Source: Eledone cirrhosa (lineage: Eukaryota). Taken from it: a DNA stretch of 64,000 nucleotides. The notes under the pieces are model-generated. The model had not been told where the DNA came from. It worked only from the letters and a program-made list of their open reading frames with translations, and did no database searches. Where the stretch lies: contig OZ024743.1 of assembly GCA_964016885.1 (NCBI GenBank), positions 31,062,001 to 31,126,000 of the forward strand. The letters are read 5' to 3'. Shown one piece after another: positions 934 through 25,524 of the stretch. Both the position numbers and the translations under genes were made by a program. Every line of letters starts with the position of its first letter. The stretch's first letter is position 1.

Positions 934-1064
934 CGGTAAACATAATTTCTGATGATATGGGATCGATTGTGCATTGGATGTCGAATGCTCTACTAACTAT
1001 ATAATATTTTAGATGCAGCGAGATCTAGGCAAATTGATGTCTATTGAAACGTACGTTAGAACCG
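934..1064 (+). ncRNA. Type I hammerhead ribozyme motif with 90-nt stem II
   Basis: CTGATGA 949-955, GAAA 1046-1049, palindromic CGTACG, TT; stem I CGGT..TTT/AGA-ACCG with a bulge; AATAAA follows. Confidence 0.6.
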
Positions 1065-1259
1065 AATAAATCTCTTTTACTGCATCTTTCTGTTCTTTTT
1101 AATTCTTTATATATATATATATATACATATGCAAAGTTTTATTTAAATTGTTGGGTTACAACGAGTAAATATTTATAACTGATATAAAAGCACTCAACAA
1201 GTATTTGGATTATATTTACGATATTAAATAAATGGAAACTATTTTTATAAAACCATATT

Positions 1260-1325
1260 TATTTCATTATATATATTTCAGGGATATCATATTAAAAATA
1301 TGGTATGCCTTCTTCAGACAAAATA
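1260..1325 (-). ncRNA. Type I hammerhead ribozyme in pLTR
   Basis: Minus strand: TATTTTGT CTGAAGA AGG..CCT GAAA TATATA TA ATGAAATA; 8-bp stem I including GU pairs, palindromic stem III loop, AUA site. Confidence 0.8.
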
Positions 1326-2732
1326 CAATATAAACAGTCTTATAAATAGATAGATTTGACATACCTTAAACTTCCATTTAAAAAGTTGATTTGGTAGTGA
1401 AAAATGTTAGGGACAGTTATAAAAAGAAAGAAAGAAAAAAAGAAAAAAAGCGAAGAAAAAGAAGAAATGCATGCAACTAAATAGAGAGAGATAGATATAG
1501 AGAGATAGATAGAGAGAAGACATTCATGTAAAGAAACAGAGAGAGATAGATAGATAGAGAAAAAACACAGAGGGAGATAGATAGATAGAGAGAGAGAGAG
1601 AGAAAAAATAGAAAAAATAGAGAGAGATAGATATAGATAGAGATAGAGAGAAAGAAAATAGGTAGTTGGGCACCAGTGGAATGACGTATCAATGATATAT
1701 TTATTTATTTATTTATTTATTTATTTATTTAGTTCTAGTATTAAGGTAGAGAGAGATATATGTGGTTAGGAGAGAAAACAGCCGTTACATAGAGAGAAAA
1801 TAAAAATATCCAGACATAAACGAGGCAGATTTAAAACATTATGTTTCATCAATGTAAAAATATCAATTCGTATGAATTAGGTATTATAATGTAAATATCA
1901 GTATTCATGAATGAGACACGTATCAATAATGTGTGAAAAATAATGATCATATGTCTAGTTTAAAATTCCTAGGTTTATATCAGAGTTGAGCTAAAAAATG
2001 AGATAAAAAAAACTGAGATAAAAAAACTGAGATAAAAAACTTAAAAAAAAAAATTGAAATACATAAGTATATATGCACTTTCATGAAAAAAGAAAGAGAA
2101 AAAGAAAATAGAAGGTTATCCCAGATTCGATACTATAGACTTCCATGTGAATTTACGTGATCAACTCTGCAAATTCCTATTTCACATGAAAACATTCTCA
2201 TTGTGCTATAAAAATTCTAGTATACATATATGTGTACATACACACAAATATATATAGAATCTACATTAATTTTAACAATACTATTCTTGTCTTTACTCTA
2301 CATGATTATCGTTCAAGCATAAATAGACAACAGATATCAATATATCAATAAAAATATCAAAAAATTAAAAAATATTAAAAATAAAACACAGTATGCCCCG
2401 CAAATCAACCACAGAGATCAACCGTTCAAAAATGAATTGACAATATATTGCCAAGTTCATTATAAGCATCAGAATCAAAAGCAAACAAAACCAAAATTAT
2501 TTACCAAATCCTGTCTAGCAGAAATCATTCCAAAAGTTTAGGATACCCATTTGATCTACAGATGGCCTTATATTTATTATAGAAGTTTATCTAGTGTAAC
2601 ATTTATTCGATATATCTGGAGCATCAGCTTTTAGGGTAGTTTAATTAATTCATGAAGAATGTTTAAAAAAAAAAAGAAATCGAAAGATTTATCGGCGAGT
2701 TTTATAAATAATTATAAATCAAAGTAAATATA

Positions 2733-4954
2733 CTACATTTTAAATTTATATTTATATTTAAAAGTTGAGTTCAATCTATGTCTGCAGCAACTGAATAAAT
2801 TTGTCCGTAAATTAAGGGAATTTTTAGATTTTAGTATAAAGAATATCTCCTCCGCGCAGAGGTCACATGTCTCAGAGGATGAATTAAAAGGAATCCCTCT
2901 TGAGACTATATTCCAAGCCGTCGAATATCCAACGTTATCATGCTTAAGTTGCCAGAGTAAGCCTGATAGTGATGTTGAAGACTTTTTGCTTGGATCTGTG
3001 AAAGAATTCTTGTGGTTATTATAGCGAAGTTTAAATTCTGTCGAGGTGGAACCAACATAGTTAAAAGAATTTAAGTCCGTTTGAACATTACAGTTGTATA
3101 TTATATTTTTAACTAAGCAATTGTTATTTAACGGACATTTAGATCTATCTCTACAGTTACATTTGTTTACTTGGATATTATTTATGCTATTATCGGTATT
3201 TTGGCTAGGTTTTAAATTCCTATTATTTATTCTATTAATATTTTGTGCTAAATTTTTGGTGGATGAGTAAGTTAATTTTATAGTATGTCTATTGAAAATT
3301 GAGTGATACCTATGTGTTCTAGGGAAGCGATTATCAAGAGCATTAAAAAATAGTTTAGCGATGTGGGTTTTAATGTTTAGTGAGAAAGGGGGGGGAACCA
3401 TATTATATTCCTAGTTCTATTTCTTTTTTGGCTTTTGGAATTATTGTAATGCTTTCTATTATAGTTGTTAAAGTTGTTGCCGTAATTAAAATTGTTGTTA
3501 TTTTGGTTAGTTTGTCTATTATTATCTATGTACATAATTTTATCACTATATCCTGCTCTAGCTAACGCTTCATTGTAATACTGGGCTTTTTCGTCGAAAA
3601 TCTTTTTATTAGATGAGATTCTAGAGATACGTTTTTGAACAGAGTTCACTATAGTATTTTTAACAGATCTGGGGTGGTTAGAGTTAAAACTGACATAGTT
3701 TAAGTTTTCATTCAACTTGTGAAATGGATAGTGAAGACATGTGTTGAGATGTAATGTTACATCTAGGAAATTGTCTATTCTATGGTTATTCTTAATTTCT
3801 ATTTTTAGATTAAAGTAATTAAAAAATTGTGTAATTTGTTTTCTTTTTCTATTTAGTTCAGAGTTATTATTTTCAATAAGTAAAAGCATGTCATCTCTAT
3901 ATAAACCTCCGGTAGCACCGGGTATTTTCCTATGCAGCGAATTGATTATAAATAGGCCCACAAGGTCAGTTACCTGAGCTGAGTCGGATGATCCCATAGT
4001 AATGTCGAAATTGTTATCTCTATCTGCTCTGGTCCATAGTTGGTCATTAAATTCTATCAATGTTTTCCTAGCCGATAATATAATGTGCATTTCATTGCTA
4101 GTTAGGTCTGTATGTTTGAATGCGTAATTTAGTGCCTTATTTAGTAGATTAGGGGTAATAGATGAATAATAGTTAGCAATATCTAGTTGAATAAATTTAT
4201 TATTATTGTTATATTTAATTTCTTTAAACCACTCAATAACCTCTCCAGTTCCCTTCCACAAGCTCAAGTTAGGTAAACAATTCAAGCTTTTAATTTGTTG
4301 TATCACCCTGTCTAGAATGTTTATGCTTAGTTTACCCAGGTCAGATTTTGATGGTGCTATCAATCTGACTGGCAGGTCATTTTCAAAATTTTTTTTGTGA
4401 TCTTTCATATTGATCTTCGGTTTCCTGGGCACGAAAGGTTGTGTTCTGTTCTCAATTTCCAACTCATGCATTATACAAGATGCCTCAACATTCATGTTCT
4501 CAAGCTCGGCTTTATCTGCTACCTTGTACTTTTTCCTCAGTTCTTTCAGTATGAGGCCATTATACATGTCTTTTTGCACTCCATAGAGGTTGTTGGTCTT
4601 GTCAGATTTCACCAAGATCTTCTCAGTTTTCTCTAAGCTCTCAATATTATCCTTAATGCCTTTCAGATATTCCTGGCCTTTGAAGTTTCTCTTGAATTTG
4701 ACTCCTTGTATGATAGAAATTATATCGTTTTCAAAGTCAAATAAAAGTTTGTTGGGGGGTGGATTTTTTTTAGATTTGAAAACTTTGTCTAAGTCCGAGA
4801 CATTTTCATTTATATTAGATTTATTAAAGTGGAATGCACGCCACCTGATTCTCCTTATAAAAGAGTCCGATTTATCTATTAATTGTTTAATAAAGTCTTT
4901 GTTTCTAGGTAGAGGTATGTCTTTTAAAGAGGAAGAAATCTTAAAGAATTCCAT
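2733..4954 (-). CDS. PLE polyprotein (reverse transcriptase + Cys-rich linker + GIY-YIG endonuclease), about 740 aa, one frameshift near 3390
   Basis: ORF 4954-3377: KSDKT, KDHK, QLDIANYYSSI, FDITMGS, LYRDD, FLDV. ORF 3401-2733: CNCR..CPL..CL, IIY..YVG, CDLC..CRH. They join at a G8 run; the sibling at 40072-40758 reads WFAPPFS in one frame. Confidence 0.92.
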
Positions 4955-24243: not shown

Positions 24244-24303
24244 CCAATCAGCTTTAGTAATTCAGTGAAACTACACATTGGAGCCACTTTTCACTGTATA
24301 TAA
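24244..24303 (+). promoter_or_regulatory. Candidate Pol II promoter in pLTR (CCAAT + TATA) upstream of the HHR
   Basis: CCAATCAG at 24244, TATATAA at 24297-24303, HHR about 65 nt downstream; both motifs also present in the mirror pLTR. Confidence 0.4.
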
Positions 24304-24366
24304 GGTACACAATTTCCCCATCTCATTACAGTTGAAAATTGCAAACTTGACTGTCACCACACATTA

Positions 24367-24405
24367 TGAACCTGAAGATTGCGAAAGCATGAAAGTAGTT
24401 GTTCA
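24367..24405 (+). ncRNA. Minimal hammerhead motif in inverted pLTR
   Basis: Exact reverse complement of 21040-21078. Confidence 0.7.
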
Positions 24406-25390
24406 ATTAACACTTAACATTTAATATTCTATCATACTATTTCATTATAATACCATTATAAATTTTAAAGGATTGTAAACGAAACGAGTAAATCAGACAA
24501 AGTTGGAATTCCTCTTATTAATATATATATATATATATATATATATATATATATATATATATATATATATGTATATACGAAAAAATGAAGATATATATAT
24601 ATGGATATATATATGGATATATATATATATATTTATCTGATATGTATATATATGTACAGAAATAGATTGCTAAATATAGCTTAACAAGGAGCCATATAAT
24701 TAGATAGATAGCTCGAAAGAGAGATAGAAAGAACAATTCAGAAAGAAACAGACAGATTGACAAACGCAGAGATAGATGAAAGATGCATAGATACGCGATA
24801 AGTCAAGTTGATACCACAAGTACGTATGTAGTCACGAACACACAGGGACAAATACACACACGTATATATATATTTATGAATAACAATATATATACACATA
24901 TATACATTTTATCTGGTCTTATCAAATGGCTGATTATGTCTTGTAAAAACTCCGATGGGGAGAGAGAGGGAGAGAGAGGGAGAGAGATAGATAGATAGAT
25001 AGATAGATAGAGAGAGAGAGAGAGAGAGAGAGAGAGAGAGAGATAGAGATAGAGAGAGAGAGAGAGAGAGAGATGAGGAAGATGCTTTATTACCACTTTG
25101 CATGTTCTCGCAAAGTGAATTCAAGTATTTATCTATGTATATATATATACAGTATATATATATATATATATATATATATATATATATATATATATATATA
25201 TATGTAGATAAATCTACCAAAATATACGGTAGTGTCCAATCCGTATGAAGAACTCAATGTAATCCAAATATCATGAAAAGAGAAGATACGTTCAAAAATG
25301 TTCGATGAAAATCATAGGAAAACAGAGTCAAGATAAATTAATGAAAACAATGAATAAAAACAAAGAACAAGTTCCTTATATTAAAAAATT

Positions 25391-25524
25391 CATCATTTTA
25401 CGATCGTTTCTAGGATATATATGTCTGTTGGTATGTATATCATATAGATCTATGCAAAAATATGACAAACTATCAGAGGAAATATCCATACCCTCACATA
25501 TATATGCTGTCTTCAGAAATTATG
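25391..25524 (-). ncRNA. Type I hammerhead ribozyme with 99-nt branched stem II
   Basis: Minus strand: CATAATTT CTGAAGA C AGCATATATATGT...ACATATATATCCT A GAAA CGATCG TA AAATGATG; GUA site. Confidence 0.75.

Follow-up and report, generated by a model that had tools for sequence, protein, structure and literature searches.

The window analysed here, a 64,000-nt stretch of Eledone cirrhosa DNA, holds four predicted hammerhead ribozymes whose stem II is far longer than usual in Penelope-like elements (PLEs), which raises the question of whether the long stems are selected structures, how they arose and what they may do. An earlier note on this DNA had described four motifs of type I layout (families A, B, C and D), with stem II spacers of 90, 79, 92 and 99 nt and stem III palindromes CGTACG, CAATTG, CACGTG and CGATCG, respectively, and we recovered the same layout, coordinates, spacers and palindromes. 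The CUGANGA core that it gave for all four is found in three of them, whereas the copy at 9791 reads TCGATGA, with one C lost. The apparent internal sub-hairpins that it saw in stem II were not recovered; each arm of A-D folds as one long irregular hairpin and not as a multi-hairpin domain. The features are as follows.

2..361 (+): family A ORF, 3' end, encoding the GIY-YIG endonuclease with CxxC and CxH motifs (the Pfam GIY-YIG match, E=0.011, misses the curated cut-off)
934..1064 (+): family A hammerhead; stem I 934-937 and 946-948 with 1058-1064, 8-nt bulge; core 949-955, GAAA 1046-1049, palindrome 1050-1055, predicted cleavage after U1057 (GUU)
956..1045 (+): 90-nt stem II arm of family A; proximal mismatch A973·G1028; distal motif made up of A984·G1018, bulged A985 and U986-A1017
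1058..1111 (+): family A tail; AATAAA at 1065-1070, (TA)n at the end
9317..10133 (+): family B copy, 5'-truncated; 3' UTR, hammerhead and long tail, as judged by blastn alignment to a longer copy of the family
9786..9894 (+): family B hammerhead; core 9791-9797, damaged in the window copy; GAAA 9877-9880, predicted cleavage after U9888 (GUU)
9798-9876 (+): family B arm, 79 nt; distal A9829·G9852
16244..17401 (-): family C copy, 5'-truncated; inverted stub at 17407-17528 (+)
16283..16403 (-): family C hammerhead; core 16398-16392, predicted cleavage after C16288 (GUC)
16391-16300 (-): family C arm, 92 nt; distal A16360·G16330
25219..26384 (-): family D copy, 5'-truncated; split by a different repeat (25562-25743)
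25391..25524 (-): family D hammerhead; core 25516-25510, predicted cleavage after A25399 (GUA)
25509-25411 (-): family D arm, 99 nt; distal A25471·G25450
26386..26560 (+): second, inverted copy paired with the D copy, truncated within the arm, without CUGANGA

The motifs had been placed at PLE termini, and each indeed forms the end of a PLE family of high copy number, with Hydra-clade marks in its ORF. A single ORF encodes RT followed by a C-terminal GIY-YIG endonuclease, for which Pfam gave a weak match in one of the four proteins (E=0.011) and none in the other three. By eye, DKT is present in A, one B subfamily, G and D3; the RWK motif is present in G and in that B subfamily, with RWS in its place in A and RWR in D2; and the CxCX5C linker, CxxC and CxH are present in A, B, C, D and G, with CCHH absent. 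N-terminal motifs were not seen in family C, where CxCX5C, CxxC and CxH are the Hydra marks. The protein tree was composed of homologues and Argonauta proteins, and the Hydra assignment was made by motif marks rather than by named Hydra references. Insertion sites are (TA)n, and the pLTRs occur in tandem and inverted arrangement. The hammerhead marks the 3' end of the element and, in tandem copies, lies 235-246 nt upstream of the ATG. Non-LTR retrozymes, which are non-coding short tandem repeats with one hammerhead per unit, were rejected as an identity, A-D being dispersed ends of coding elements; Naiad/Chlamys PLEs have an N-terminal endonuclease, whereas the one here is C-terminal.

In order to assess the ribozyme core, we compared family copies. 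The core C3-U4-G5-A6-N7-G8-A9 with G12-A13-A14 is intact in 28/30 fetched copies of family A and in 28/30 copies each of C and D, and in 23/30 best copies of family B, of which 19 read CCGA(A/T)GA (U4C). The A15.1-U16.1 pair is A-U in 13/13 rows, and H17 is U, U, C and A in A, B, C and D. The register supported by the families places GUU at the predicted cleavage site of A and B, GUC at that of C and GUA at that of D; for A and B, the alternative UUA register was discarded, since stem I pairs better with GUU in family copies. Stem I is 8 bp long in the majority of family D copies. Compensatory changes were seen in stems I, II and III, with the three helices arranged round the core and stem I open. 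The core too is under selection, as seen from the U3-A8 swap in families G and D5.

The window copies alone fold weakly in the arm (z values of -2.3, -0.9, -1.0 and -0.2 for A, B, C and D), and the arms of central family copies fold better (-4.0, -2.6, -2.8 and -7.0); a branched arm was found only in another family, F. Across 13 families or subfamilies, changes on both sides were found in 22/33 pairs, including 17/25 arm pairs, a level reached by 0/500 shuffles, although the shuffle ignores relatedness and 8 of the 13 rows are close B-type subfamilies. Among six deep lineages, 17/25 arm pairs also have a compensatory change. Two A·G mismatches are invariant in 13/13 rows, and the bulge is G in 12 and A in one. 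Between deep lineages, arm identity is 40-60% and protein identity 43-64%, and the upstream UTR is mostly unalignable. These observations agree with the suggestion of the earlier note that the long stem II is a selected structure: the arm is an inherited, covarying hairpin of 75-116 nt under selection. A lower substitution rate in arms within families was not counted, because the copies had been selected for their similarity to this part.

A similar A·G/bulge motif is present in the arm of family D, where the block around it is the best-conserved part in 5/5 of the D group; the descriptor for it was written after the motif was seen, and 8-38% of structure-keeping shuffles of D arms also produce the motif. 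In a third lineage, a family whose arm is 62 nt long, the series G-C, A·G, bulged G, U-A and C-G occurs in 14/20 copies. The long arms of families E and F lack the A·G motif.

The four motifs had also been called sequence-unrelated, and the domain was thought to have been grafted recurrently onto stem II. Neither claim held for A, B and C, which form one protein clade (100/100) and share a common arm that aligns with the two invariant A·G mismatches. A, B, C, G and H are of common descent. A single origin for all four window arms was dropped as a conclusion, at tree support of 47/7.8 and 32/7; the grouping of D with A, B and C (32/7) is neither supported nor rejected, and adding E is not rejected (p-AU 0.22). 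An arm-only model of the B type and sister families, searched against 883 kb, picked up A and G alone beyond the B type, at modest scores of 19-26 bits (E 0.05-2.4 in 883 kb), and did not find C or D. No protein could be linked to family F or to the 62-nt-arm family. Spacers in the same genome range from 12 to 116 nt, and since those of 12-62 nt are present too, growth of an existing stem agrees with the data no less than grafting does. Metagenome and viral contigs gave no relatives when scanned with a profile close to these families, and a second protein search gave no match above 42% identity, so that the long-armed clades are seen here in a single species. One 69-nt metagenome match lies inside an ORF and was taken as chance. 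Hydra-like metagenome loci have 10-30-nt spacers in 37/38 matches.

The long-stem-II descriptor search suggested in the earlier note gave, with strict settings, 8 matches at 76-105 nt and 2 at 106-150 nt in 800 kb, compared to none in the reversed 800 kb or in any of 10 local dinucleotide shuffles; for the window itself, there were 2 matches vs 0 in 50 shuffles. In an even 1.2 Mb sample, 22 of 118 hammerhead matches had 71-120-nt spacers, compared to 0 in the reversed control, after one of 23 (a 91-nt match) was removed as a tandem repeat. Two exact patterns searched genome-wide gave 2,930 and 10,807 matches (controls 1 and 0). That length-limited searches miss such arms also proved right: no hammerhead family was among 86 Rfam matches in the window at E <= 1, where the short hammerheads were missed too, and the core-only search of Craig et al. 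2021 used a 7-17-nt spacer (PMC8557442). Spacer-limited searches can thus overlook a sizeable share (22/118 in the even sample, >13,000 exact matches in one genome), and the finding bears on claims that some PLE clades are without hammerheads.

Hammerheads at PLE ends are known; those reported here have a conserved 75-116-nt stem II arm, and our literature search found no description of PLE hammerheads with such a long conserved stem II. The Hydra-clade hammerheads of Craig et al. 2021 (PMC8557442, File S2, whose table includes an Octopus family) share with ours the type I fold, the position near the 3' end, a U·U that is common where stem II begins, cleavage sites of the GUU/GUA/GUC type, a short stem III and (TA)n targets, but their spacers are 12-26 nt by our own count and ours are 75-116 nt with conserved internal motifs. 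The minimal PLE hammerheads of Cervera and de la Pena 2014 (PMC4209133) likewise have a palindromic stem III thought to act in dimers, the U3-A8 variant, inverted pairs and many families per genome, yet the helix II called larger than usual there is 6-8 bp, compared to about 35-45 bp here. Plant PLE-X1 elements (Craig 2021, File S2) have an enlarged stem II region as well, about 54 nt in PLE-X1_sMoe; they are single families marked deviant, belong to another clade and have no described conserved arm. The Anolis Poseidon element PAc (Frangieh et al. 2024, PMC11167929) also has a pLTR hammerhead and copies reaching beyond the cleavage site. Its stem is short because its ORF starts at stem II, with the cut 26 nt after the start codon, whereas the ATG here lies 235-246 nt after the predicted cut. 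The PAc hammerhead cleaves only with its protein; core mutants leave insertion unaffected, and RNA truncated to +20, beyond the core, still inserts; the site that matters for insertion in that element is therefore not the hammerhead.

Our preferred reading, held tentatively, is that these are type I folds in the pLTRs of Hydra-type PLEs whose inherited stem II hairpin may well dock the element's own RT/endonuclease; RT/EN binding, packaging and an allosteric switch were the candidate roles put forward in the earlier note. It is supported by unpaired letters staying fixed while helices turn over, and the protein-dependent cleavage of PAc is a precedent. Counting against it are the insertion results for PAc, the abundance of short-stem Hydra families in this genome, the modest scores of the arm model and its failure to find C or D, the absence of the motif from E and F, and its occurrence in shuffled D arms. 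The predicted probability of stem III in the monomer is <= 0.05 in 11/13 long-arm rows; since it would rarely form, cleavage would need a second copy through an 8-nt palindrome, or protein help, as has been reported for other PLE hammerheads. The arm would keep the protein beside the core, giving preference for its own RNA and timing of cleavage, with the A·G/bulge/U-A motif as the recognised part and the variable apical loop having no role. Copies run 41-63 or about 150-240 nt beyond the predicted cleavage site, and new insertions would therefore be copied from RNA still joined across it.

Alternatively, the arm could act as RNA only, raising cleavage as a folding aid or by docking the A·G/bulge motif to stem I or a dimer partner, which we regard as possible but on the unlikely side. 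Contacts between stems I and II do accelerate natural hammerheads (PMC3088659), the cores could need help, being weak through the U·U at the arm base and the GUU triplets, and the palindromes are retained despite letter changes (pairs 119-122, 120-121); but the distance between the distal motif and the core (about 12, 24-30 and 38-43 nt in three lineages) varies too much, and is in most cases too great, for a contact of the usual kind, and the arm flanks hold no conserved pseudoknot or shared Watson-Crick loop-flank partner, a search to which non-canonical contacts are invisible. Recognition by a host dsRNA-binding, export, editing or 3'-end processing protein that stabilises or routes the element RNA seems quite improbable to us. 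Irregular helices of 35-45 bp suit dsRNA-binding proteins, a similar motif is present in lineages with divergent proteins, and AATAAA or ATTAAA follows the cleavage site in 11/20 long-arm clusters; yet AATAAA is no rarer after shorter stems (21/31), the fixed mismatches are A·G, and family-copy arms show no A>G excess, on small counts.

We give a similarly low standing to tolerated growth, by which slippage or small duplications in an AT-rich genome lengthened the stem, pairing is kept merely for core folding and the motifs reflect ancestry. The wide spacer range within one genome, the different architectures of E and F and a fresh tandem duplication in the D3 apical loop all fit it. So do the thriving short-stem families: this genome is rich in Hydra families whose stems measure 20-36 nt, and the long arm is therefore no general need. 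Against it, the mismatched letters are invariant across lineages whose upstream UTRs cannot be aligned, and all sampled families of two clades keep the arm although deletions arise. Short-armed B-type deletions number 18 scattered copies, nearly all with different junctions, compared to 2,930 long B- and G-type matches; their rare amplification is weak evidence, because most copies never amplify.

Engineered aptazymes carry a binding domain on stem II that can couple binding to cleavage; they are artificial, whereas for the natural arms such coupling is putative. Docking of the RT/endonuclease could go further, to a natural protein-gated ribozyme in which Hydra elements built a stem II binding domain and the protein switches cleavage of its own RNA, the motif standing about 1, 2 and 3 helical turns from the core in three lineages; we consider this extension unlikely. 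If it is true, long-armed hammerheads would form a large class that has escaped notice, and some may be hidden in PLE clades described as having no hammerheads. The role of the hammerhead in PLEs is an open question according to Craig 2021 (PMC8557442), and a conserved stem II domain with invariant mismatches, together with natural short-armed relatives, offers a direct handle on it. In family C, the 3' strand of stem I overlaps AATAAA.

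The four hammerheads of the window, motifs A to D, lie where the earlier note placed them and have the spacers that it gave between the core CUGANGA and GAAA. Its reading of this core in all four fails for the window copy of B.

Motif A: core at 949-955, plus strand, spacer 90 nt.
Motif B: core at 9791-9797, plus strand, spacer 79 nt; TCGATGA in the window copy, one C being lost.
Motif C: core at 16398-16392, minus strand, spacer 92 nt.
Motif D: core at 25516-25510, minus strand, spacer 99 nt.

Each motif is the terminus of one repeat family. At the DNA level, first-look candidates in the 3.0-Gb Eledone cirrhosa genome numbered 436 (A), 1,905 (B), 621 (C) and 1,225 (D), and 40 per family were scored. 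The core pattern was intact in 28 (A), 23 (B), 28 (C) and 28 (D) of the 30 best copies of each family, with U4C in 19 of the 23 intact-core B copies. With the register set by family copies, the cleavage triplets are GUU in A and B, GUC in C and GUA in D. An Rfam scan of the window gave no hammerhead match. A frequent short interspersed repeat, which presumably resembles octopus SINEs, interrupts A and D copies (window 619-799, 21394-21577, 25562-25743 and others).

Upstream of each family's motif lies a reverse transcriptase with a C-terminal GIY-YIG domain, bearing DKT, RW(K/R/S), CxCX5C, CxxC and CxH marks; for the Hydra clade of Penelope-like elements (PLEs), Craig et al. 2021 (PMC8557442) give DKT, RWK, CxCX5C, CxxC and CxH. 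The nearest named homologue of the element protein is from Argonauta hians. Family copies show 5' truncation and (TA)n at the end, and inverted pairs are common. In two copies with an upstream pseudo-LTR, the predicted cut lies 235 nt (family G) and 246 nt (A) upstream of the ATG. Copy ends past the predicted cut form two groups, of ~41-63 nt and 150-240 nt; since copies run past the cut, their RNA template would have been uncleaved at that site, as is described for the Anolis PLE hammerhead element in PMC11167929. The sequence GT(T/C)GAG(C/T), possibly a promoter or translation element, occurs ~25-37 nt upstream of the ATG in six Hydra families, one of them short-stem (L244, L232, L236, L281, L130 and window 4954, minus strand). 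Independent copies of D3, a D-group member, have a 4.6-kb microsatellite-rich 3' UTR in common (L242:2941-7600, L123).

Thirteen rows, each a family or subfamily, make up the whole-motif alignment: eight of B type and one each of I, H, G, A and C. RNAalifold returned a single long hairpin in which 16 of its 21 pairs have changed on both sides. In our own 33-pair structure, pairing holds in 90.7% of 421 cells and two-sided changes occur at 22 pairs, a result reached by none of 500 shuffles; slid controls pair 30-50%. Because the shuffle test disregards relatedness among rows, we recounted on six deep rows, in which 17/25 arm (stem II region) pairs change on both sides and 120/143 cells are paired. 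Two A·G mismatches are invariant in 13/13 rows, the distal one being followed by a bulged purine and then a fixed U-A pair. Between deep lineages the arms are 40-60% identical, and the apical loop is variable. The 90-nt stretch preceding stem I cannot be aligned from one family to another, apart from a weak alignment of A with C. The compensatory pair changes and invariant A·G mismatches bear out the earlier proposal that the long stem II is a selected structure. An arm-only covariance model, trained on ten rows (B-type, I and H), recovered in 883 kb four B-type arms, two A arms at 25-26 bits, three G arms at 19-23 bits and no others; the C and D arms were missed. A compensatory U3-A8 core occurs in families G and D5.

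The long-spacer motifs also withstood comparison with shuffled sequence. In 80 evenly spaced 10-kb stretches, a strict hammerhead search pattern (descriptor) gave 8 matches with 76-105-nt and 2 with 106-150-nt spacers, versus none at 76-150 nt in reversed sequence or in each of 10 local shuffles. A wider descriptor with the U3-A8 core added, applied to 120 stretches (1.2 Mb), gave 41, 47, 6, 1, 23 and 0 matches with spacers of 9-20, 21-40, 41-60, 61-70, 71-120 and 121-200 nt, respectively, and 0, 1, 0, 0, 0 and 1 in the reversed control. One of the 23 was dropped as a tandem repeat, so that 22/118 remain. Genome-wide, exact patterns matched 2,930 B/G-type arms (control 1) and 10,807 D-type arms (control 0). 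From these counts, long arms form a separate, abundant mode above a series of short and medium ones. PLE hammerheads with a long arm are a real, abundant, selected structural variant.

By our own count, spacers of the Hydra hammerheads in File S2 of Craig 2021 (PMC8557442) are 12-26 nt. Among 77 Hydra-like metagenome loci, 38 matched the descriptor (none in the reversed control), 37 with a 10-30-nt spacer and one with a 69-nt spacer inside an ORF; many of the 39 unmatched loci are on contigs that stop short of the 3' end. Judged from sequence, long stem II is a derived state in Hydra hammerheads. The longest PLE stem II that we found in the available text is ~54 nt (PLE-X1_sMoe, PMC8557442), and 'long helix II' in PMC13725137 means 6 bp. 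In eight Naiads of Craig 2021, two of them from cephalopods, 35-50 nt separate the core halves; labelled HHR_half_core in File S1, these could be hammerheads with a longer stem II. The full-text literature searched, which included few subscription papers, held no report of such arms; the supplementary alignments of Cervera 2014 and Perreault 2011 could hold long-armed cases.

The motifs had been regarded as sequence-unrelated and recurrently grafted. The protein tree places A, B, C, G and H in one clade and the D group in a second, each with 100/100 support. As the A, B and C proteins share a clade, three of the four motifs carry one inherited arm, and recurrent grafting fails for at least these three. 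The union of this clade with the D group was unsupported in two tree runs (47/7.8 and 32/7), its full support (100) in a first tree coming from a misplaced label; holding both together with family E (95 nt) was not rejected (p-AU 0.22). The same unresolved fork also contains three families with short stems, K (20 nt), W (31 nt) and T36. The D arm may be the A/B/C arm or parallel growth, and the arms of E and F look like separate origins. Family F, whose 96-nt arm is branched (three-way) and shows some compensatory change (L146:7440-7571, L291-L310), has 2,325 first-look candidates, the top copies being 99-100% identical; no own ORF lies upstream in 20 loci, and the family is likely a young non-autonomous element.

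In five D-group arms the basal helix is wholly changed in sequence with its pairing kept, and a block around GAU-A-K-U / A-G-AUC is retained with similar A·G, bulge and U-A geometry. A distal-motif descriptor, written post hoc, matches at that place in 4/5 D rows, but shuffles that preserve structure match as well, at a rate of 8-38%. Outside the D group it matches 14/20 copies of a 62-nt-arm family (null 2%), whereas E, F, F2 and seven arms of 45-57 nt gave no match. The 62-nt-arm family (L162:6935-7032, minus strand; L331-L350) has 2,066 first-look candidates, with short inverted pairs common and no protein linked at these loci.

Stem III is predicted to be rare in the monomer (probability at most 0.05 in 11/13 long-arm rows), the 8-nt palindromes have predicted duplexes of -6 to -10 kcal/mol except in one damaged copy, and the palindrome centres covary in the 13-row alignment. 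Together these fit a dimer mode, in which cleavage would occur with two copies paired through the palindrome; such a mode is proposed for PLE hammerheads in PMC4209133. For the arm, a protein site would fit better than a fixed tertiary contact, since mismatched letters are fixed on a sequence-changing helix, the distance to the core is variable and the loop is free. In PMC11167929, cleavage of the Anolis hammerhead depends on the protein of that element; by this precedent the first candidate binder is the element's own reverse transcriptase/endonuclease, which we infer would recognise the arm. Against this reading, the same paper has the Anolis core dispensable for insertion, short-stem Hydra families thrive in the Eledone cirrhosa genome, and families E and F lack the distal motif. 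Protein docking is a candidate role for the arm and a testable one. Short-armed B-type deletions account for 18/41 matches to the short-spacer pattern and are nearly all unique; this scarce amplification would weakly fit selection for the arm. Hammerhead cleavage in viral 5' UTRs is linked to cap-independent translation in a 2026 paper, and the 3' product of these hammerheads could be translated similarly, but the arm remains on the 5' product.

Further hammerhead-like motifs of the window, all on the minus strand, are the following.

1317-1268, minus strand: spacer 31 nt.
28660-28622, minus strand: spacer 20 nt.
30880-30836, minus strand: spacer 26 nt.
33011, minus strand: spacer 13 nt, U3-A8 core.
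38177, minus strand: spacer 30 nt.
43385-43315, minus strand: spacer 50 nt, 8-nt palindrome.
43908-43838, minus strand: spacer 50 nt, 8-nt palindrome.

The 13-nt-spacer motif adjoins a 95-nt near-perfect inverted repeat (window 33006-33100). Outside the window, locus L170 is a retrozyme-like tandem array of at least 11 units of ~310 bp, each with a 14-nt-spacer hammerhead.
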